From a virus (Duplodnaviria > Heunggongvirae > Uroviricota > Caudoviricetes): 43,880 nt of DNA. Position numbers and translations under genes: made by a program. Of this stretch, positions 1 through 43,880 are shown piece by piece. The stretch is taken from the IMG/VR virus record IMGVR_UViG_3300045988_187204; one strand, given 5' to 3'. The first letter of the stretch is position 1. Each line of letters starts with the position of its first letter. The notes beneath the pieces are model-generated. The model was not told the DNA's origin and ran no database searches. It saw nothing but the letters and a program-made list of their open reading frames with translations.

Positions 1-426
1 ATGGTATTAGTTAGCATGTTAATGCTGACATTAGAAATTCATGCAGCGTCGGCTGCAACATCAGGAAATGTATCCTCTACCAGCGAGATGGACTGGACTC
101 CAGTGATGGACGCTATCATTCAGGTAGAGAGTAAGGGTGATCCGAAAGCTAAGAGCGGTAACTCTGTAGGTGTGATGCAGATCACTCCAATTTTAGTAGC
201 AGAATGTAATAATATTCTGAAGCGCAAGAAATCGAAGAAGCGCTACACTTTGGCTGATAGATATAATGTAGCTAAATCTAAAGAAATGTTTCTATTGATT
301 CAGAGTGTCTACAATCCTCTTAATAGTATCGAGCACGCAATCCGTTCATGGAATGGCGGTAATCATTTCAGTAAGAAGCGTACTCAGAGATATTTCGAGA
401 AGGTAATGAAACTTTTGAAAAAGTAA
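1..426 (+). CDS. Lytic transglycosylase-like (SLT/lysozyme-like) protein; ORF open at window start, probably 5'-truncated; likely outside the prophage
   Basis: ORF track 1..426; IIQVESKGDPKA...NSVGVMQITP resembles the catalytic Glu-Ser / G-x-MQ signature of SLT-family transglycosylases; hairpin plus T-run terminator immediately downstream. Confidence 0.45.
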   Translation: MVLVSMLMLTLEIHAASAATSGNVSSTSEMDWTPVMDAIIQVESKGDPKAKSGNSVGVMQITPILVAECNNILKRKKSKKRYTLADRYNVAKSKEMFLLIQSVYNPLNSIEHAIRSWNGGNHFSKKRTQRYFEKVMKLLKK

Positions 427-626: not shown

Positions 627-702
627 CGCGGTGTGGAGCAGTTGGTAGCTCGCCAGGCTCATAACCTGGAGGTCGCATGTTCGAGTCCTGCCGCCGCAAC
701 CA
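627..702 (+). tRNA. tRNA-Met (anticodon CAU), 76 nt with encoded CCA; initiator-like C1-A72 mismatch
   Basis: Cloverleaf folded by hand: acceptor CGCGGTG/CGCCGCA, D arm GAGC-AGTTGGTA-GCTC, anticodon arm CCAGG-CTCATAA-CCTGG with CAT at 660-662, variable loop AGGTC, T arm GCATG-TTCGAGT-CCTGC (one U-C mismatch), discriminator A, CCA 700-702. A CAU anticodon could also be tRNA-Ile2 (lysidine). Confidence 0.8.
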
Positions 703-818
703 ATATCGGGTAAGAAGTTGGAAACAACATTCTTATCCGATTTTCCGTTTTGGGGAGGGACGGAAGCGAAATACTTTATTGTTGAATATCATTGGCTGGC
801 AACGGACAATGAAAAAAA

Positions 819-1982
819 ATGACTGCAAAAGAAATTGATTTTTTGAGCTCGCGTGAAATAGTAGGTTTCACGCTGCCTGTGTTGCATACCAAGGGCGGTT
901 ACTGGTATGTTGACTTTACTGCCTTTGACCCTGTTTCGGGTCGGATGAAGCGCAAGAAATATATGCTTAATAGGTACAAGACTGACCACAAGAAGCGTAT
1001 GATGGGTACCTTGCTTATCCACAATATCACGGCAAAATTGACCGCTGGATGGAATCCTTGGGTGAATGCCGACAAGTCGAGACAATTCACCGAAATACCA
1101 ATTATCTTTAGTCGTTATCGTGATTATATTAAGTCGATGACCGACAAAAAGTCGATGAAGGAAAAGACCTCTATCGACTACCTCAGCCGCCTCAAGACTC
1201 TGGAGTCTTTCATCACTGAGTGCAAGAGTGTCAAATATGCCTATCAGATTGACCGTGCCTTCGCCATCGACTTCTTAGACCACCTGATGTATGACCGTGA
1301 TGTGAGTGCTACCACAAGAAACAACTATCGCTCTTGGCTTGTCTCCTTCGGCACTTGGCTTATGGATAGAAAATATATCAGCGAGAACCCTGCCATCGAC
1401 ATCAGAAACATCGCTCAGAAGGAGAAGTTCAGAGACCCTTTGACCGAGGGCGCGCTTAAGAAGCTGAAGACTTATCTCTATGATAACAACAGACATTTTC
1501 TCTTGGCTTGCCTCTTTGAATATTATACCTTTATCCGACCGAATGAGTTGACGCAGATAAGAATCAAAGATGTGTCGATTGCTGACCAGACGGTCTTTAT
1601 CAGTTCTGCCATCAGCAAGAACCGTAAGGACGGACTTGTGGCATTGAACGATGAAATCTTGAAGCTCATGATAGAGCTGAAGATATTTGAGCATCCGGGA
1701 CATTGTTTTATCTTTGGCAAGGGGTTGAAGCCTGGTGAGGAGCGAGCACCTTATAACCAACTGAGAGTAGAGTGGGGCAAGATGCGAGATGCTATTGGGT
1801 TTCCGAAGGAGTATCAGTTTTATAGCCTGAAGGACACTGGCATCAGGGATTTGGCGAACGCACAGGGTATCGTGGTCGCCAAGGATCAGGCACGCCACTC
1901 TGATATATCTGTGACGAATCGATATATCAAGAACCAGATGAAAGTGAACGAGGAGACCAAGCACTTCAAAGGTGGGCTTTAG
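819..1982 (+). CDS. int: Tyrosine site-specific integrase
   Basis: ATG at 819 checked; C-terminal ...ARHSDISVTNRYIK contains the H-x-x-R ... Y catalytic signature of tyrosine recombinases; sits immediately downstream of a tRNA gene. Confidence 0.85.
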   Translation: MTAKEIDFLSSREIVGFTLPVLHTKGGYWYVDFTAFDPVSGRMKRKKYMLNRYKTDHKKRMMGTLLIHNITAKLTAGWNPWVNADKSRQFTEIPIIFSRYRDYIKSMTDKKSMKEKTSIDYLSRLKTLESFITECKSVKYAYQIDRAFAIDFLDHLMYDRDVSATTRNNYRSWLVSFGTWLMDRKYISENPAIDIRNIAQKEKFRDPLTEGALKKLKTYLYDNNRHFLLACLFEYYTFIRPNELTQIRIKDVSIADQTVFISSAISKNRKDGLVALNDEILKLMIELKIFEHPGHCFIFGKGLKPGEERAPYNQLRVEWGKMRDAIGFPKEYQFYSLKDTGIRDLANAQGIVVAKDQARHSDISVTNRYIKNQMKVNEETKHFKGGL

Positions 1983-3971: not shown

Positions 3972-6900
3972 TTATTTGTTTGACTTCATTTTTTGATATT
4001 GGCTCCATTGGCGGTCGAAGCCATCGGGGCCGGTGATGACCACGTATGACTTGATGCCAGCATCGAGCTGTTGGTTGAGTCGGTCGATGGTGTTATGCAC
4101 GCTATCGAGGGATGCGCCCATCTGTTCGGTGTCGCCACCTGTGACGTTGACCACTGGGGCGACCACGGCTGCGCTGCCTGTGCCCATGGCACGGCTCACG
4201 TCTTGTGCGGTGAGCGAGGCGACAGTGTTGTTGCGCTGCGCCATATCGATGAGCTGCAGGGCAGGGAGGAGCTGAGGATTGTTGACGGCGTTGTGGTTGG
4301 CGACGAACTCGCCAGCGTGAACCACGCCAGCCTCTTTCTTGTAATTGCCAGGACCAGTGAAACCACCCTCGTAATAGCCAGCCGCCTCTGCCTGGTGCTG
4401 CTTTTTGATTGTTGCTATCTGGAGCATGCCCGCTGCGGTGGCGAGACCTGCGGCGATAGGACCAAGGATGTGACCCACCACTGGGATGGCTGCGGCTGAT
4501 GAGTAGGCGTTGATGGCAGCCATGGCGGTTGAAGCTATGGCTTGTGCGATCTCTATCTTCATCGCCTTTTTGTTGGCCTTGCTCTTGGCTGCAGCCACCT
4601 CTTTGTCTCGCTTCGCCTCGAGTCGCTTTTTCTTGGCTGAGTTGTTGCCAGCGGCAGAAATCTGCTTATCGTAGTTTTTCTCGATCTTGGCGACCTCTAG
4701 GTCTGAGCAGGCCTGAGAGTAGGCGGAGGCAGCGCCCATCATCGTGTTGATGCTGCTGAAGGCAGCGCCAGCGATGGAGGCTATCTCTTGATAGGTCTCT
4801 TTGTTCATCTGCTTTTTGGCATCTAGATAAGCCTGTTCGCTGATGTTGCCATCTCTACGTAGCTTGTCTAGATTATCGTTGACCATCTTTTGCTGTTGGA
4901 TGGCTGCGATGGCACCACCTGCGATTGTGGCGAGGTTGTCGCTGCCCATGGCATTACTGTTGTCGCCGTTGCCCTTGGTCATCTTTTTGGCGGTGTCGAG
5001 GGCGGTGTTGGCATCCTCTTTGCGCTGCTCGTCGGCGGTAGGCTTGTATGAGGCGTATTTGTTGGCGATGCCCATCTTTGTGCGCTGGTATTCCTCCTCT
5101 CTGATGAGACCTGCCTTGTAGATGGCTTCGAGCCCCTGCAGCTCTAGTTGCATCTGCTCTTCGTTGCCGAGCTTGCCGTATTCTTGGCGCAGCTGAAGGA
5201 GTTGTTCGTCGTGTTGCTTCTGAAGGTCGTATTTGCGTTGCTGTTGGGTCAGCTCTCGCTCTTTCTCGATCTGGGCGTACTCGTCAGATGAGGAGAGGTA
5301 GAGGGCTTGCTTTTTGTTGAGATAGTCCTGGTATGAGAGAAAGAGAGCCTCGTTGACGGCATCCTCATTGTGATAGAGGTTGGAGTCTTTGTTGTAGTAG
5401 TCTGCATTGAGCTTCATTTCTTTTTTCTGTCGCTCGGTCTCCAGGGCTTCGAGGTCGGCGGTCTGCTTCTTCTCGTAGTCGGCGGCGATATTCTCTTTCT
5501 CGGCGCTCAATCGCTTGTACTCTTCGCTCTCTGCCTCGCCATACTTTTTGAGGATGTCGAGGCGAGCCTGAAGCCCCTGCTCTTTGATATTCTTCATCTT
5601 CTCGTTGTATTCGGCGAGTCGAATCTGCCCCGTAGCGTAGAGTGTCTTGGCATCTAGCTCTTCGGCTTGGTTGGCTTTCTTGGCATCGTCTAGCTCTTTT
5701 TTCATGTCGGCCTTGCGCTTTGCCTCTGCCTTGCGAGCCGCAGCCTCACGCTTCTTTTTCTCCTTCTCGGCAGCCTTGCGCTCTTTCTCGGTCATGGTAT
5801 GACCAGAGGAAGGGGTGACGGGTGTCTCAGTAGTTGCGCTATTGTTTAGTAAATTCTTCTTTACAGTCTTGTTGTACTGTTTCTGTAAATTAACGTTTTT
5901 CTCTAATTGCTGATTATAGAAATTCTCTTCAGCATTGACTTTTTTTTGCAGGCTTAGGTTTGCCTGTAGTCTTTGCGTATGAATTTGCTTTTGCTTCTCG
6001 TTGCTCTTCAGTGCCTCGTTTTGTTCGATGAGCTGACCTGTCCATCCATCAGCCACGGCATTGCTCTCATATTGCTTAGGATGAGCCTTGCGCTCAGCAT
6101 CGACAGCCTTCAGAGAATATCGTATGCGGCTCTCTTTTTGTTTGAGTTTCAGTTTCTTTTTATTGATTTCCACTTTGCGTTCATAGATAGCTTCTGCCAT
6201 GGCAGCATTCTCTAGCTCCTTGATGTAGTTTTGGATGGCAATCTGATTGTCGTTATACAACTTGCCCTCTTTGGAGATAGAGGCGTGATATTCTGGGACG
6301 AGCTTTTGCATATTTGCGATAGCTTGCTTGCGCTCGTCAACGGTATAGGCATTGGAGTGGATAACCTTGTTGAGCATATCGACCTTGTTGCGCTCATCGA
6401 GGGTAGCATCAGACACTTTTTTGGCGAGGCTGGCTTGAGCCTCTGCCACAGCTCTGTTGTTTTTAGCCTCTTGCGTGTTGTTGCGCATCGCCTCATTGTA
6501 AGATGTTATGGCTTTGTATGCCCCATAGGCAGCCACGCCCACAACGGTGATTACCGTGGCGAGGGCAGCCCATGGATTGGTGAGACTGGCTAGGCGTGCC
6601 GCCCTCATCACCACGATGTAGCCCTGTATGCCTTTTGTGAGATAAGCCCATGTGGCTTGCAGTGCCACTAAGGCAGCACGCAAAAGGGTAGAAGTTGCAG
6701 CACAAGCTTTATCGACAGCTGAAGCGTATTGCACAGCGGCAGATTTAATCTTAATAGCGATTGTCTCCTTGTACCAGAGAGTAGTACAAACAGCGATGGC
6801 TGTTGACAGCACGGCTATTTGTTTGGCATAGGTGACGGTGAAGGTGATGAGTGTGGACATGACCTTTATAGTCAGGCTGAACGACGTGATGCCATATTTC

Positions 6901-8318: not shown

Positions 8319-8340
8319 AATTGAATATTTTATTTTATGG

Positions 8341-8348
8341 CAAAGGTA
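8341..8348 (-). promoter_or_regulatory. Putative -7 promoter element (TACCTTTG on - strand) upstream of the tape-measure gene
   Basis: + strand CAAAGGTA = reverse complement of TAnnTTTG; about 25 nt upstream of the start at 8318. Confidence 0.3.
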
Positions 8349-8360
8349 ATAAGGAGGAAA

Positions 8361-8403
8361 ATATAATAAAAATACGAGACCGTATGTATTGCGGTCTCGT
8401 ATT
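8361..8403 (-). terminator. Intrinsic terminator (- strand)
   Basis: Perfect 12-bp stem AATACGAGACCG (8371-8382) / CGGTCTCGTATT (8392-8403), 9-nt loop, U-rich tract on the - strand (+ strand ATATAATAAA at 8361-8370). Confidence 0.5.
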
Positions 8404-10814: not shown

Positions 10815-10841
10815 GGTGAATCTTGTTTTTGTTTTACAGTG

Positions 10842-10849
10842 CAAAGATA
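10842..10849 (-). promoter_or_regulatory. Putative -7 promoter element (TATCTTTG on - strand) for the lysis cassette
   Basis: + strand GTGCAAAGATA; same extended motif recurs upstream of many - strand genes (20700, 26063, 28748, 37676, 38817). Confidence 0.35.
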
Positions 10850-10861
10850 AGAAGGGTAGGG

Positions 10862-10901
10862 TGATAATAAAAATACGAGACCGCCCTAACGATCTCGTAT
10901 T
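10862..10901 (-). terminator. Intrinsic terminator (- strand) after the gene ending at 10915
   Basis: Stem AATACGAGACCG / CGATCTCGTATT (11 of 12 bp, same stem sequence as the 8371 hairpin), then U-rich tract on the - strand. Confidence 0.45.
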
Positions 10902-11328: not shown

Positions 11329-12972
11329 TCACGTGAATTTATAGAACTTCTTTTTGAATTTATTGTGAAGCTCTGCGACCACGGTGGAGAAGGGTAGCTC
11401 ATCACGACAGAAGTCGTTGAGGGCTTGGTCTATCAAGATCTTGGAGCCTGTATAGAGGTAGTGCTCCAGAGGTTGCCATACCTCGGTGCCGTCTGGCTCC
11501 AGGTGGTCGATGATGCGATAGCGTAGGGAGAGGCGCTTCTTGGGCACCTCTTTGGTGACCATGTGGGTGGAGCCGTCCGGGGCGGTCTCCTCTTGCTGGA
11601 TGGTCTCCTTCTCTATCACCGAGTCATCGACCTTGTAGTCTATCACTTGAACGAGGAACTTGTTCTCGTCCTGACCCTCACGGCAGATGATGTCCTCGAT
11701 GGACTGCTGCTGTGATTTCTCCATACCGTCAAAAGGCACGCGCGCACGGCGAGCCTTGACGAGTTTACCGAATCTTTCCATACCGATTTTCTTATATAAG
11801 TTTTTAGAGTTTGCGTGGATGCCCAGACCTAGGCGAGAGGCTGCCTTGAGCTGTATCTGGCGGTCTGTGAAGCCCGCCTTGCGTAAGTTGGCGATCTGTC
11901 TGCAGAGGTCGTGCTTGAACCGCTTGCGCAACAGGGCGTGGTCGGCGTAGATGATCTGACCGCAGAAGTCGATGCCATCGCAGGTGCGGTGGATACCCCA
12001 AGACTTATTGATGGATAGGTGCCAGTCACGGGCGAGGTGCATCACGGCAAGCTCTGCCATCAGCCTGAGGAACACCTTATCCTCGTGGAGGATGTAGATG
12101 TTGTCCATGAAGCGGTAATAATGGCGAAGACCTTGGCGGCAGAAGCGCTCGAACCTATCGTTGAGCGACTTCACTCCCCCGCATAGCAGTTGAGCTTGCT
12201 GCTGAGTGCGACAGGTAACGAGCATGTCGATCACGTAGCGAGCCTGCCAGTAACGGAACTTGTCGGTGTCTTGGAGAATGTCGAAGCATCGGAGTGCCAG
12301 GTAATCGAAGCGGGCGAGGAAGAGCTGACCCAAGAGTTGGGCGAGCTTGACGCCGAGCACGATGCCTGGATTGAAGCTATCGACCACCTCGTCGATGAAG
12401 GCGAGGAGCTTGCGGTCTTTGATCTTGCGGCGATATTCACTTTTGAGAAGAGCGTGGTCTATGCTCTGAAAATAATGGTGAATATCCATGGGCAAGCAGT
12501 AGAAGGTATCTTGCTGTGGCGAGTTGAAGATGTCTCGCTTGACAAGATTATAGAAATAATGGGTGCCCTTGCCCTTGGAACCAGCCGGACTGTGGCTGTA
12601 GAGTGTCTTGCGAAGGTTATCCTCTACAGGTTGCAGGGCAGCGTGCTGGATGACGTGGTCGATAACGGGCAGCTTGTTGACTTGGCGATGTTTTGGATAG
12701 TCGATATCTTTGGCGACATAGGCTGAGGTATGCCAAGTTTGTTGGGTGTAAGCATCGAGCATGCGTCCGATGTTATGGTCTAGGTTTGCCTCGAATTTTT
12801 GGACCGCACGGCGAGACATCTTTTGTCGGGCGTAGTCATAGAATGCCCGACGAAAGTTGTCTAGTGTCTCGACCTGTGGCGATATGTTGCCAAACCTTTT
12901 CATAAGCGGTGTAATGTCTGTGTTGAACGGTGTATAAACTGTGTATAGTCTGAATCGTCTGCTTTTGTACAC
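11329..12972 (-). CDS. Reverse transcriptase of a diversity-generating retroelement
   Basis: RT-like motifs in order: YFQSIDH (motif 2-like), GIVLGVKLAQLLGQLF (motif 4 with the DGR-typical [I/L]Gxxx[S/A]Q in place of QGxxxSP), RFMDNIYIL (motif C position), GIDFCGQII (motif 7-like); TR lies 140 bp upstream. Track start at 12972 is GTG; first in-frame ATG is at 12903. Confidence 0.85.
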   Translation of the reverse strand: MYKSRRFRLYTVYTPFNTDITPLMKRFGNISPQVETLDNFRRAFYDYARQKMSRRAVQKFEANLDHNIGRMLDAYTQQTWHTSAYVAKDIDYPKHRQVNKLPVIDHVIQHAALQPVEDNLRKTLYSHSPAGSKGKGTHYFYNLVKRDIFNSPQQDTFYCLPMDIHHYFQSIDHALLKSEYRRKIKDRKLLAFIDEVVDSFNPGIVLGVKLAQLLGQLFLARFDYLALRCFDILQDTDKFRYWQARYVIDMLVTCRTQQQAQLLCGGVKSLNDRFERFCRQGLRHYYRFMDNIYILHEDKVFLRLMAELAVMHLARDWHLSINKSWGIHRTCDGIDFCGQIIYADHALLRKRFKHDLCRQIANLRKAGFTDRQIQLKAASRLGLGIHANSKNLYKKIGMERFGKLVKARRARVPFDGMEKSQQQSIEDIICREGQDENKFLVQVIDYKVDDSVIEKETIQQEETAPDGSTHMVTKEVPKKRLSLRYRIIDHLEPDGTEVWQPLEHYLYTGSKILIDQALNDFCRDELPFSTVVAELHNKFKKKFYKFT

Positions 12973-13111
12973 TTGATAACCTTCGACCGGATGACCGTGT
13001 TGTCATCATCTACCAGCTGTCTTATTAATGTGTATGTATCGCCATGGGGCGAGGATTGACCCTGTAATCTCGAAGTGGGAGCAAACGACCCACGAAGAGA
13101 TATGTCTGTAA

Positions 13112-13233
13112 GTTGAGGGCGGCGCCGTAGTTCACATTGGCATTCGAGACAGCATTGTTCACGTTGAGCGTCGAAAGACCGCATTGACCACCATTGTTAG
13201 CGTTAGCACCACGAAGGCAGACACGAAAACCGG
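13112..13233 (-). repeat. DGR template repeat (TR)
   Basis: About 122 bp matching 13523-13644; across 13115-13233 all 12 differences are at TR adenines (sense strand), 0 of 97 non-adenine positions differ. Confidence 0.9.
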
Positions 13234-13267
13234 CACCTAGGGTCACACCCTGGTATCATAACCGCCG

Positions 13268-13275
13268 CAAAGGTA
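13268..13275 (-). promoter_or_regulatory. Putative -7 promoter element (TACCTTTG on - strand) upstream of TR-RT
   Basis: + strand CAAAGGTA at 13268-13275, about 35 nt upstream (- strand sense) of the TR. Confidence 0.35.
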
Positions 13276-13471
13276 ATAAAAATAATCGGTATGGAAGCAT
13301 GTCAAAGAGCTTTTTTGATGTTTTTATTGATATTTTTTTTGTCGCCGACCGCCACAGGCGGTAACTTAAGGCGAGCTACGCTCGCTGGGTGCTTCGGCTT
13401 CGCCGAGGGTGCTCAGGTCTCTTTTGCACACCCAGTAAACCGATGCACACCCAGCAAACTGATGTAGTCTT

Positions 13472-14944
13472 TTAGGCCGCCTCGTAATACACGGGTTCAA
13501 CGGACCACTCGGATGCTGCTTCGCAGAGGGCGGCGCCGAAGTCCACATTGGCATACGAGACAGCAAAGCTCACGTAGAGCGTCGAAAGACCGCACCGACC
13601 ACCACTGCAAGCGTTAGCACCACGAAGGCAGACACGAAAACCGGATGTAGCGCCGCTAGTATTCCAGAAATAGCTAGTCCAATAGGTTGACTCGGATGCG
13701 CCCGTGGCGGTCGGGAAGTTCTCCAGATGCTCCATCGAGAGCGTCTTGATAAAGCCTTCGCCCTTGGTCGGCGAGGTGCTGTAAGCCACCATGCCATCGG
13801 CGGAACCTATCGTCCACGTGCCGTAGATGGACGGTGCCACGAGATGGGTCACGGAAGTGTCCTCGTTGCAACGCACCTGCTCGTCATCCATGTGTCGCCA
13901 CAATAAGCCGAAGCCATTTTTGTAGCCGAAGAAGGATGGTATCTTGGCGGTATAGACCACGGTGCCATCGTCTTTTTTGACCTCGTAGCTCGCCTCGCCG
14001 CAAGCGTCGCCCAGCTCGATGCCGGCAGACATCGGCACGATAGGGCGATAGCCGTTGTAACCACCCCAATCAGGCATCTGTGTCACGCCAGCTCCGAGAC
14101 CACCCTGGTAGAGACCGTTGGCATCTTTTTGGCTGTTGATGGCATCCTGGTCGTAGTGGGTGCCGAAGATGACCCCGAAGAGCACGGCGATGGCAGAGGT
14201 GTGGCGCATGGTGGTGCAGAGCCAGCCTGTACCATTCTTGCGGGCTGCGGCACGCCAGTATTCGGTAGTCTGGTTGGTGGCAGCCTTGCCCAGCATGGTG
14301 CGGTTGGTGTTATCTAACGTTGAGTCGTTGTTGCCGCCTCGGTAGTCTGTGCCCTCGTTGATGTAGCTCACCAGCTTGCCTGTGCTGCGCTCTAGCGTGG
14401 CGAAGCCAGCGGCGGAGATGCTGCCCACAGGTATCTTGTAGTTGTACTCGCCAGGTATTGGCGTAGGGCTGACCATCTCGTAATGGAGTCTGCCCACGGT
14501 CTTGATGACCATGTACCACTCCTTGCCCCAGCCCCACTGGTAATGCCCCTCTGAGCCATCGAGCTTGGCTGTCTCGCCGGTGGCATACTTGTGGTGGTCT
14601 TTGGAGTCGAGCTTGCGACGGGAGTGGTCATTCTTGACCAGATAACAGCCCAGACCCAGCTCCGTTGGTAGGGTCTGCAGTAACTCTAGCGAGCCCACAT
14701 AAGTGGCGGCTTTAGGGGTTGCATTGTCGAGGTTCCACACTCGACCACACCAAGGATGCTGTCCCATTTGGACGGCGCTTTTGAGCGACATCTGCTCAGA
14801 CCTGCCGGATTTTTTGTCGAAGACCTCGACAATCTTGTCAGTGGCGCTCATGTCTGACTGTGGGAGGTCGTCAACCTGTTGACCTCCATCGAAAGCGGCT
14901 ATGATAGCCTTGAGCTTACTCTCTTCTTCTGATGTTAATGCCAT
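13472..14944 (-). CDS. DGR target (variable) protein; C-terminal variable region, likely receptor-binding virion protein
   Basis: ORF track 13472..14992; start refined to ATG at 14944 (MALTSEEESK…); C-terminus …GFRVCLRGANACSGGRCGLSTLYVSFAVSYANVDFGAA… is the VR (TR encodes …GFRVCLRGANANNGGQCGLSTLNVNNAVSNANVNYGAA…); C-lectin/FGE-like fold is inferred, not shown. Confidence 0.85.
   Translation of the reverse strand: MALTSEEESKLKAIIAAFDGGQQVDDLPQSDMSATDKIVEVFDKKSGRSEQMSLKSAVQMGQHPWCGRVWNLDNATPKAATYVGSLELLQTLPTELGLGCYLVKNDHSRRKLDSKDHHKYATGETAKLDGSEGHYQWGWGKEWYMVIKTVGRLHYEMVSPTPIPGEYNYKIPVGSISAAGFATLERSTGKLVSYINEGTDYRGGNNDSTLDNTNRTMLGKAATNQTTEYWRAAARKNGTGWLCTTMRHTSAIAVLFGVIFGTHYDQDAINSQKDANGLYQGGLGAGVTQMPDWGGYNGYRPIVPMSAGIELGDACGEASYEVKKDDGTVVYTAKIPSFFGYKNGFGLLWRHMDDEQVRCNEDTSVTHLVAPSIYGTWTIGSADGMVAYSTSPTKGEGFIKTLSMEHLENFPTATGASESTYWTSYFWNTSGATSGFRVCLRGANACSGGRCGLSTLYVSFAVSYANVDFGAALCEAASEWSVEPVYYEAA
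13523..13644 (-). repeat. DGR variable repeat (VR) inside the 3' end of the target gene
   Basis: Direct alignment with the TR (offset 411 bp); ends 17 codons before the stop at 13472. Confidence 0.9.
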
Positions 14945-14966
14945 AATAAAAATTATATTTAATCGA

Positions 14967-15731
14967 TTAAACAATGCGTAATTTATCACCAACTTTTCTA
15001 AGCTTGCCCGATGCCGACAGGCGAAGGCGAGGCTGGCGCACGGTGATGCTGACCTCTTGCCAGAGCGGTGTGTTGGCGGTGGGGATGACCCAGAACTTGG
15101 TGGTGCCCTCGCCCTTGATGATGAGGTTGCCGCTTGGGTCTGCCACGAGCGAGTCGCCCTCGGCTCGCTGGAAGAGCACGCTCTGAGGGAGGTAGCTCGG
15201 CAGGATCTGCACGGCGATGCGCTGAGCCACCTTGTTGCGTAGGCTTATCTCGGGGAGATAGGTCAGGTTCATGCGAGCTGGCGCGATGAAGCCTGTGGTT
15301 ATCTGAGCGGCGAGACCATCCATCTGCGCTATCTTGGCATCGGCTCGCTTGGATGCCGCGTCAGCCTCTGCAGCCTTGGTCTCTGCCAAGGCTGCCTGTG
15401 ATGCTGCAGCCTCGCCCTGCTCGCCAGCCGCCTTGGCTGCGCTCTGGGCGAGGTTAGCCGCCTTGTTGGCATCGTCGGCCGCACCCTGCGCTCTGACGGT
15501 CGGTGTCTTGTCGAGCCACAAGCGCCACTTGGCGTTGGTATCTGAAGGAGTCGTCGTGTTGCCATCCTCTAGGGAGGCGAAGACTCCTGACGATGTGTGA
15601 ACGATGTCGCCCTCGTCGTAGCCCTTGACGGTCTGGCCATCCTCATCTTGATAGGAGTAGCCCGACTGCCAGGTGCCCTGGTCGGTGAAGGCGACATTGC
15701 CCACGATAATGATGTTTGTGTTATCTGCCAT
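14967..15731 (-). CDS. Virion protein in the tail-fibre cluster (Ala/Gln-rich central segment), function unassigned
   Basis: 254-aa ORF, ATG at 15731; immediately upstream of the DGR target gene. Confidence 0.45.
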   Translation of the reverse strand: MADNTNIIIVGNVAFTDQGTWQSGYSYQDEDGQTVKGYDEGDIVHTSSGVFASLEDGNTTTPSDTNAKWRLWLDKTPTVRAQGAADDANKAANLAQSAAKAAGEQGEAAASQAALAETKAAEADAASKRADAKIAQMDGLAAQITTGFIAPARMNLTYLPEISLRNKVAQRIAVQILPSYLPQSVLFQRAEGDSLVADPSGNLIIKGEGTTKFWVIPTANTPLWQEVSITVRQPRLRLSASGKLRKVGDKLRIV

Positions 15732-20683: not shown

Positions 20684-20699
20684 ATTTTTTATTTTGATG

Positions 20700-20707
20700 C
20701 AAAGATA
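20700..20707 (-). promoter_or_regulatory. Putative -7 promoter element (TATCTTTG on - strand) upstream of the large tail-fibre gene
   Basis: + strand TGCAAAGATA about 15 nt upstream of the ATG at 20683. Confidence 0.3.
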
Positions 20708-20735
20708 GGTATGATGAGAACTATATAAAAATACG

Positions 20736-26039: not shown

Positions 26040-26080
26040 ATCAATGTCTCATTAAAACGATGCAAAGATAGGAAGGAAGG

Positions 26081-26123
26081 GGAGAAAATAAAAATACCTG
26101 ATTGTCATCACGACAACCAGGTA
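26081..26123 (-). terminator. Intrinsic terminator (- strand) after the small-gene cassette
   Basis: Stem TACCTGATTGTC / GACAACCAGGTA (11 of 12 bp), loop ATCAC, U-rich flank on the - strand (+ strand GGAGAAAATAAAAA). Confidence 0.4.
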
Positions 26124-43502: not shown

Positions 43503-43880
43503 ATGTTTAATGGTCAGATAATCAGAAAGTTAATGTCGGATGCTGGCTTAACTAAAAAAGAGTTTGAAAGACGTATGTTCGGTAGTAAATCGACCGACCT
43601 CAACCATTTGGAAAAAGCGAAGAATCTTCGCAGTGACACTCTCGAACGTCTGCGTGAGGTGTTGAAGTGCTCTATGGATGACTTCTTTACAGCACCCTCA
43701 TGGGCTGAGAACGGAAAGGGGACAGTCGTAGGCTCTAACAATGTGCTGTCAACAGTAGCCATCGGCAACGAAGTGATGGAAGCCCAATATCTCAAGGAGT
43801 TGCTCTTGGAGAAGGACAAACGCATCAGCACTTTGGAAAATTATATCAAGCTTCTGGAGACTAACTTAAATAAGGACTAA
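43503..43880 (+). CDS. XRE-family helix-turn-helix transcriptional regulator (prophage repressor candidate)
   Basis: 125-aa ORF ending at the window edge with stop TAA; N-terminal …IRKLMSDAGLTKKEFERRMFGS… is HTH-like; on the + strand like the integrase, opposite to all lytic genes. Confidence 0.55.
   Translation: MFNGQIIRKLMSDAGLTKKEFERRMFGSKSTDLNHLEKAKNLRSDTLERLREVLKCSMDDFFTAPSWAENGKGTVVGSNNVLSTVAIGNEVMEAQYLKELLLEKDKRISTLENYIKLLETNLNKD

Follow-up and report, generated by a model that had tools for sequence, protein, structure and literature searches.

The locus, the empty site and the att core

This analysis concerns the left end of a 43,880-nucleotide stretch of viral DNA (IMG/VR record IMGVR_UViG_3300045988_187204; the whole stretch is called the window), where a tRNA gene is followed closely by an integrase gene. 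In the entire window ARAGORN finds one tRNA only, tRNA-Met(CAT) at 627-702 on the plus strand with its cat anticodon at position 34; from Rfam covariance scoring and sequence comparison it appears to be an initiator tRNA-fMet gene that is chimeric and intact. The integrase, an open reading frame (ORF) of 387 amino acids at 819-1982 on the plus strand, starts 117 nt past position 702. It is recognized as a tyrosine integrase by Pfam Phage_integrase (PF00589; 44.6 bits, cut-off 27.1), by the SAM-like N-terminal domain (PF02899) and by the PHROG integrase family (9e-31). A first-pass annotation, made from the letters alone, had placed the integrase 117 bp downstream of the CCA end and had read this as the layout of integration into a tRNA 3' end. 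The distance is confirmed, and the layout is borne out by comparison of the left junction (attL), the right junction (attR), the empty host site (attB) and the phage site (attP).

Positions 1-700 of the window are 98.9-100% identical to six loci named or matching the gut bacterium Segatella (Prevotella) copri (L033, L057, L076, L088, L134 and L074, the last being the complete chromosome of strain G8). No integrase sequence is present at these six loci. In all of them, and in metagenome contig L002, position 700 joins directly to the flank seen to the right of attR, with join points at 6873|6872 in L033 and 1276|1277 in L074. Contig L002 encodes the exact SLT protein of the window and shows the phage-free order SLT, tRNA, hairpin, TetR, FabG and RluA. 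Because 1-700 matches phage-free S. copri loci, it is assigned to the S. copri chromosome, and phage DNA is taken to begin at 701. The comparison with an empty-site allele, which the first-pass annotation had proposed as a check, has thus found the two flanks contiguous in the six S. copri loci and in L002.

The host flank itself opens with a gene for a secreted SLT-domain lytic transglycosylase (1-426, plus strand; Pfam SLT, 33.9 bits), whose protein is the same at the empty sites. It is followed on the same strand by a terminator-like host hairpin with a 15-pair stem at 440-474, found by a terminator scan. At 564-595, also on the plus strand, host DNA reads TTTG, 20 nt, TAccTTTG, which we take to match the Bacteroides -33/-7 promoter consensus. 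This element, predicted by reading the sequence, is likely to act as a Bacteroidota-type promoter of the tRNA; GTACCTTTGCAC, from the putative promoter, recurs at two other intergenic sites. As a separate observation, many independent assemblies (L003-L011 and L014-L021) break 430-650 bp upstream of the SLT gene, which points to an element, repeated or variable, immediately to the left of the window in S. copri.

When attL from the window, attB from L002 and three attR sites are aligned, they have one block in common, the 17-mer AGTCCTGCCGCCGCAAC. Its attL copy lies at 684-700 on the plus strand, corresponds to tRNA nucleotides 58-74 and is identical at attL, attB, attR and attP; it spans the end of the T loop, the 3' strand of the T stem, the 3' strand of the acceptor stem, A73 and C74. 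To the left of this core attL equals attB (the 5' part of the tRNA) and attR is phage, and to the right attR equals attB and attL is phage. Contigs extending past the end of the window were retrieved through its last gene, a Cro/CI-type helix-turn-helix (HTH) gene at 43503-43880 on the plus strand, identified by Pfam and PHROG scans. In contig L022, which matches the window at 99.97% identity over its last 3 kb, the HTH stop codon is followed by 89 nt of phage DNA ending in ...CCAACTCGTT, then by the core, and then by AATGATCGGGTAAGAAGTTGGTGAACAACATCTTATCCGATTTTTTTGTGCCC... and the TetR gene; this trailer is the one found at the empty sites. The second copy of the core (L022 10468-10484) lies about 90-106 nt beyond the window end, and no relevant second copy (at least 12 nt) of the tRNA 3' end is found inside the window. 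The direct repeat that the first-pass annotation expected at the other junction, outside the window, has therefore been located about 90 nt past its end, and the att repeats map to the tRNA rather than away from it. The same arrangement of phage left arm (...CCAACTCGTT), core and host-type trailer, the last differing by host lineage, defines attR in 13 contigs.

The position of the crossover can be narrowed by following the trailers. At attL the trailer CAATATCGGG… (CAATATC...) is the same in hosts with T52 and in hosts with C52, while at attR the trailer varies with host lineage, so that L157 matches L054, and L028, L029 and L031 match L143 and L123. On a single contig, ERZ1035006 NODE_64, attL (L015) carries the phage-type trailer and attR (L157) the L054-type host trailer. 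Since the attL trailer is constant and the attR trailer depends on the host, exchange is placed within 684-700 or at its edges. The strands might instead have been exchanged downstream of the tRNA, at the far end of a 64-bp homology (…TCTTATCCGATTTT), which would make the terminator segment at attL host DNA. The attP-type junction of a human-gut contig (L159) and the attL of a related prophage (L004) both carry a terminator segment identical to that of S. copri attB, and the block of identity extends over about 64 bp in those strains, so that the crossover cannot be placed there. Constant attL trailers in lineages with unrelated native trailers, attR trailers that follow the host, and the L015/L157 pair all argue against a downstream exchange, which is considered improbable. 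Exchange at the 17-bp core leaves a tRNA gene of three parts: host DNA at 627-683, the shared core at 684-700, and two phage nucleotides, C75 and A76, at 701-702. Up to C74 there is no difference between the tRNAs of attL and attB. The native S. copri gene continues as ...A73 C74 A A, without an encoded CCA, and the lysogen reads ...A73 C74 C75 A76, with CCA encoded at 700-702.

The phage DNA between the core and the integrase gene (701-818, plus strand) forms the P' arm of attL, is constant at attL across host lineages and includes a look-alike of the tRNA terminator. It opens with an imperfect copy of the host trailer (CAATATCGGGTAAGAAGTTGGAAACAACATTCTTATCCGATTTT in the window, AATGATCGGGTAAGAAGTTGGTCAACAACATCTTATCCGATTTT in the host). 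A phage-borne hairpin at 705-741 precedes a U run (-20.1 kcal/mol, z -5.5), as does the hairpin of the host trailer (-21.9 kcal/mol, z -6.1), and the phage hairpin would be expected to terminate tRNA transcription before int. Two observations on this arm stand on their own. In L027 (10500-10570), and also in L116 and L108, native DNA just past the tRNA terminator resembles the P' arm (...AGGGACGAAATCGAACGAAATACTTT, compared with AGGGACGGAAGCGAAATACTTT in the window) and looks either like a remnant left by an earlier related prophage or like the DNA from which the phage arm was derived. In addition, metagenome contigs L003, L004 and L010 hold a second, related prophage type at the same S. copri tRNA site, with tail genes of 630/631/623 and 1446 amino acids, a different P' arm (CCGTTTTAGAAACGGG...) and trailer segments unlike those of the window.

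Taken together, the window is very probably a segment of the S. copri chromosome in which a temperate phage of about 43.3 kb has been integrated by a tyrosine integrase in the 3' end of the initiator tRNA-fMet gene. In this account of site-specific recombination by the integrase, the core is common to phage attP and host attB, and in the recombined locus the promoter and the 5' three-quarters of the tRNA are of host origin and everything from 701 onward is of phage origin. The incoming DNA restores a complete tRNA by adding C75-A76 and supplies a hairpin terminator mimicking that of the host, and the integrase gene comes next. Since the tRNA is restored in full, it probably stays functional in the lysogen.

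Class and integrity of the tRNA

Scored with the Rfam tRNA model, 627-702 reaches 56.6 bits (gathering score 29, E 1e-9), and the only non-standard pairs flagged are 1:72 and 52:62; the covariance scoring suggested by the first-pass annotation thus does not class the gene as a pseudogene. Read from the sequence, the acceptor stem CGCGGTG/CGCCGCA comprises C1xA72 (C627 against A698), G2:C71, C3:G70, G4:C69, G5:C68, U6.G67 and G7:C66, and the discriminator is A73. The D stem GAGC/GCTC includes A11:U24, the anticodon stem CCAGG/CCTGG includes A29:U41, G30:C40 and G31:C39, and the T stem GCATG/CCTGC includes a U52.C62 mismatch. The CAU anticodon, the acceptor mismatch, A29-U41 in place of one of three G-C pairs, and the single U-C mismatch of the T stem had all been described in the first-pass annotation, and each of them stands.

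With these features the tRNA is assigned to the initiator (fMet) class. The alternative of an elongator tRNA-Met, or a tRNA-Ile2 with lysidine, draws on a CAU anticodon that is common to all three classes and on the strict rule of three G-C pairs at 29-31:39-41, which A29:U41 breaks. Elongators, however, are marked by a Watson-Crick pair at 1:72, and the window tRNA has C1xA72. Formylase recognizes initiator tRNA through G2:C71, C3:G70 and G4:C69, and A11:U24 is also listed as a mark of the class; all four pairs are present in the window tRNA. A relaxed form of the anticodon-stem rule, three consecutive purine:pyrimidine pairs at 29-31:39-41, is satisfied by A:U, G:C and G:C. Since such au/GC/GC stems occur in accepted initiators, where they are documented as natural variation in alpha-proteobacteria and certain mycoplasmas (PMC5389676, Shetty et al. 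2016), A29:U41 does not disqualify the tRNA from this class.

Comparison with Escherichia coli points in the same direction. In a BLAST search of 5,426 complete E. coli genomes, the window tRNA is 83% identical over its full length to a tRNA found at a median of 4 places per genome. The top match is one of three tandem tRNA-Met genes adjoining amiC, a cluster that corresponds to the metZWV initiator operon; the initiator genes of E. coli number four, those of metZWV together with metY (PMC5389676). An elongator or tRNA-Ile2 assignment is accordingly judged very unlikely. Beside this comparison it was observed that the top-ranked E. coli initiator copies (H52-H58) read CTCGTCAGGCTCATAACCCGA, in which the textbook G29 is replaced and A29 stands opposite C41; in E. 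coli strain 510016 (L152 401-477) the copy with the A29 variant is the third gene of metZWV. The A29-bearing copies presumably rank first because of the A at position 29.

A further question is whether the deviations reflect damage, a reading implicit in the first-pass annotation, in which A29-U41 and the U.C mismatch could point to a damaged or ambiguous tRNA. On that account the gene would be a chimeric pseudogene, its U52.C62 and A29-U41 arising from the joining of host and phage DNA or from decay after insertion. Position 62 does lie inside the att core and position 52 outside it, and the minimum-energy fold lacks the T arm (z 0.06). Thermodynamic folding is judged uninformative here, because tRNAs rarely beat their shuffles and the covariance model, which scores the gene far above its threshold, is the proper test. 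Moreover, the uninterrupted S. copri alleles have bases identical to those of the window tRNA, A29:U41 and U52.C62 included.

The same features were followed more widely with a pattern scan of one genome per species, which returned at least 120 loci (L032-L151), 117 of them full-length matches among those listed. The genomes are species-level, mostly Prevotella, Segatella and Prevotellaceae, and the pattern fixed about 50 other positions, so that the sample is conditional on it. Among the 117 matches listed, A29:U41 and the three purine:pyrimidine pairs (A:U, G:C, G:C) at 29-31:39-41 are invariant, as are A11:U24 and G2:C71, and position 1:72 is C:A in 116. C3:G70 and G4:C69 are each found in 116, the lone exception being the truncated gene of L078. 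Position 52:62 is never paired, being U.C in 108 and C.C in 9. Elsewhere pairing is kept by covariation in this Prevotellaceae-type set, with A-U (92), U.G (12), G-C (11) and C-G (1) at 6:67 and G-C (113) and U-A (4) at 7:66. Compensatory change at some pairs, combined with a 52:62 that persistently stays unpaired, indicates a functional gene with a conserved mismatch, and the idea of a damaged pseudogene is left with almost no credibility. A29:U41 and the unpaired 52:62 thus appear as the norm of the lineage in Prevotella-type genomes, unrelated to integration. The inference of damage is refuted by the same bases in uninterrupted alleles and in 117 related genomes, and the question of intactness that the first-pass annotation had left open is answered: the tRNA is intact, its 3' end rebuilt by phage DNA. 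As a side observation, the initiator tRNA gene of L078 (RUG11590 contig, Prevotellaceae) is broken after position 66 (…GAGTCCTGCC|AGTTCTTTGACC…), which could reflect a further insertion or a break in the assembly.

The canonical form, with three G-C pairs and no mismatch in the T stem, is seen in four initiator tRNAs of other gut bacteria, on human faecal contigs (L153-L156). In the Prevotella/Segatella-type group, ribosomes already start translation with no Shine-Dalgarno pairing. An initiator tRNA at odds with two near-universal rules seems to have become fixed in these Bacteroidales, and this could, quite tentatively, mark a lineage-specific adjustment of initiator selection. Such an adjustment could touch IF3 and P-site checks, rejection by EF-Tu, or modification of the T arm. 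A report of this deviation (A29:U41 with unpaired 52:62) in Prevotella or Bacteroidota was not found in the searchable literature. The nearest parallel is the au/GC/GC initiators of alpha-proteobacteria and some mycoplasmas (PMC5389676), in which the first G-C pair is likewise A:U and three purine:pyrimidine pairs are kept; the window tRNA differs in coming from Prevotella-type Bacteroidales and in having the additional, always unpaired 52:62.

The integrase, the excised form and the weight of the evidence

The closest annotated relatives of the integrase are those of Porphyromonas gingivalis prophages, with 31-34% identity over 96-99% of the protein. By itself the integrase finds no match among PDB sequences with phmmer, and a profile built from five sequences (the window protein and four relatives) was needed to reach solved Xer structures. 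Across the five aligned sequences R240, K267, H360 and Y369 do not vary. In the profile alignment R240, H360 and Y369 fall opposite Arg I, His III and the Tyr nucleophile of Xer proteins (4a8e; XerD, 1a0p), and the region of K267 matches the Lys-beta motif gKggKDR of the XerC-like 4a8e and is gapped against XerD.

Evidence for an excised form was sought through attP. A looser search with the P arm and core returned two attR sites and one attP-type contig, L159, a 1,084-bp contig from the human gut that holds in order an HTH gene, the P arm, the core, a trailer, the P' arm and the start of int. It is suggestive of an excised or circular form of the phage. A host-type trailer segment is present in L159 and, at attL, in the related prophage L004, and this trailer segment is therefore regarded as varying between phage strains, perhaps because it has been exchanged with the copy of the host. 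The reconstructed attP of 224 bp contains no direct repeats of 8 nt or more that could represent arm-type binding sites; its only inverted pair, of 7 nt and 36 bp apart, is treated as chance.

Several points weigh against the interpretation of the window as a phage integrated in an initiator tRNA gene. The exact attP junction of the window type has no match in IMG/VR or the JGI metagenomes. L159, the sole contig of attP type, carries the host-type terminator and trailer segment instead of the version in the window, and the same junction would arise in a tandem double lysogen, so that this contig is suggestive of excision only. The right junction of the window's own prophage is read from other contigs, in which the HTH protein is identical and the DNA 99.97% identical. 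The crossover is placed, for the phage type of the window, only to within or at the edges of 684-700 and no more finely. Formylation by Fmt and a role in P-site initiation are predicted from sequence features. Finally, box II of the integrase, Y335-S-L-K338, is aligned with H-x-L-R of three solved Xer proteins and so has Lys at Arg II and Tyr at His II. This Y-S-L-K is invariant in the integrase clade formed by the window phage, the P. gingivalis phages and Riemerella phages. Because the clade clearly integrates, the protein probably behaves as a tyrosine integrase whose active site is a variant one, and the many clean integrations suggest that it is catalytically competent despite Lys at Arg II.

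These points leave the integrated prophage as the strongly favored account. It is extremely improbable that the tRNA is phage cargo in a complete, permuted phage genome without integration, with the SLT protein as a phage lysin. The window does start at an ATG and end at a stop codon, and these cuts at gene boundaries made a complete phage genome conceivable at first; SLT-like enzymes occur in phages, the SLT protein has a weak PHROG match of unknown function, and many phages carry tRNA-Met genes. Against this, SLT, tRNA and TetR-FabG-RluA are contiguous in phage-free S. copri genomes at the 98.9-100% identity given above, phage-specific sequence starts exactly after 700, host genes other than SLT lie beyond the far end of the phage, and L159 joins the HTH gene to int via the core only, with neither the 5' part of the tRNA nor SLT.

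The prophage, its relatives and its hosts

Beyond the integrase gene the prophage body extends from 1983 to 43880 and includes, by the ORF map and Pfam and PHROG assignments, a tail fibre, a tape measure, lysis genes, a diversity-generating retroelement, a Clp-type prohead protease and others. When 24 kb of the phage were compared with GenBank phages by megablast, the only matches were two partial ones (76-78% identity). The retroelement is complete and occupies 11329-14992 on the minus strand. Comparison of repeats identifies a template repeat of 119 nt (13115-13233) and, situated at the C-terminal end of the ORF for a tail protein (13472-14992; PHROG tail protein, 4e-59), a variable repeat (13526-13644), and all 13 of the 13 differences between the two fall at template adenines. 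The reverse transcriptase ORF (11329-12972) is assigned by PHROG (1e-54) and has no Pfam match at E <= 0.01, and an Rfam RT-17 RNA (12955-13056, 59.9 bits) lies between the template and the reverse transcriptase. Separately, a family of intergenic repeats of about 50 nt (…TGCAAAGATA…AATAAAAATACG) is found at 8325-8391, 10826-10892, 20684-20735 and 26061-26113. Read on the minus strand, these contain TAnnTTTGCA, the Bacteroidota -7 promoter box, and are therefore probably promoters of phage operons.

The prophages of P. gingivalis that carry the closest annotated integrases belong to the candidate families 'Ludisviridae' and 'Nixviridae', which are reported to be inserted in tRNA-Ser and tRNA-Pro, respectively, and to be bounded by repeats of 13 bp or more (Matrishin et al. 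2023, PMC10367356). Like the window phage, they reside in Bacteroidales, measure 42-50 kb, carry the integrase at the end of the genome and are bounded by short repeats. Their records begin with a stretch resembling a tRNA 3' end and a hairpin about 140 bp before int, the same layout as in the window, and their integrases share the Y-S-L-K of box II. The window phage differs from them in its target tRNA, the initiator tRNA-Met, and in its host genus.

Sublocation classes for the insertion of tyrosine-integrase elements in tRNA 3' ends were reportedly set out by Williams in 2002. In the P4, P22, HP1 and mycobacteriophage L5 types, an attP copy of the 3' segment of the tRNA regenerates the gene, the integrase adjoins attP, and the identity block runs from the T loop to the 3' end, all as in the window phage. 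The latter differs in that its perfect identity is short (17 bp), with an imperfect copy of the host terminator after it, and in that its copy adds an encoded CCA missing from the host gene. A different link between tRNA and lysogeny is described for some mycobacteriophages, in which phage-encoded tRNA genes are reported to be required to establish lysogeny (PMC10865867). These phages resemble the window phage in integrating at a tRNA gene and have their lysogeny tied to tRNA function; the window phage differs in lacking a complete tRNA gene of its own and in having its target rebuilt at attL. No relevant literature was found on S. copri tRNA-Met prophages.

The integration itself follows the standard, textbook layout for a tRNA 3' end, and knowledge of integration at tRNA sites is unchanged by it. 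What is gained is the exact left boundary of a widespread prophage, for which the assembly collection indexes the integrase and end genes in 423-487 blocks (and the adjoining host SLT gene in 726), together with the name of its host, S. copri. This is of use for prophage annotation and strain typing in gut metagenomes. The 17-bp att core also predicts host range: it includes G67, which is found in 13 of the 117 species among the matches listed (12 with U6.G67 and one with C6-G67), and most of the other Prevotella-type genomes sampled have T at position 67. For specialists in translation and in recombinases, the lineage-wide deviant initiator tRNA and an integrase clade in which Lys replaces Arg II could be side points of interest. 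The unusual element at this locus is the host tRNA and not the integration, and this essential initiator tRNA is left undamaged in lysogens.

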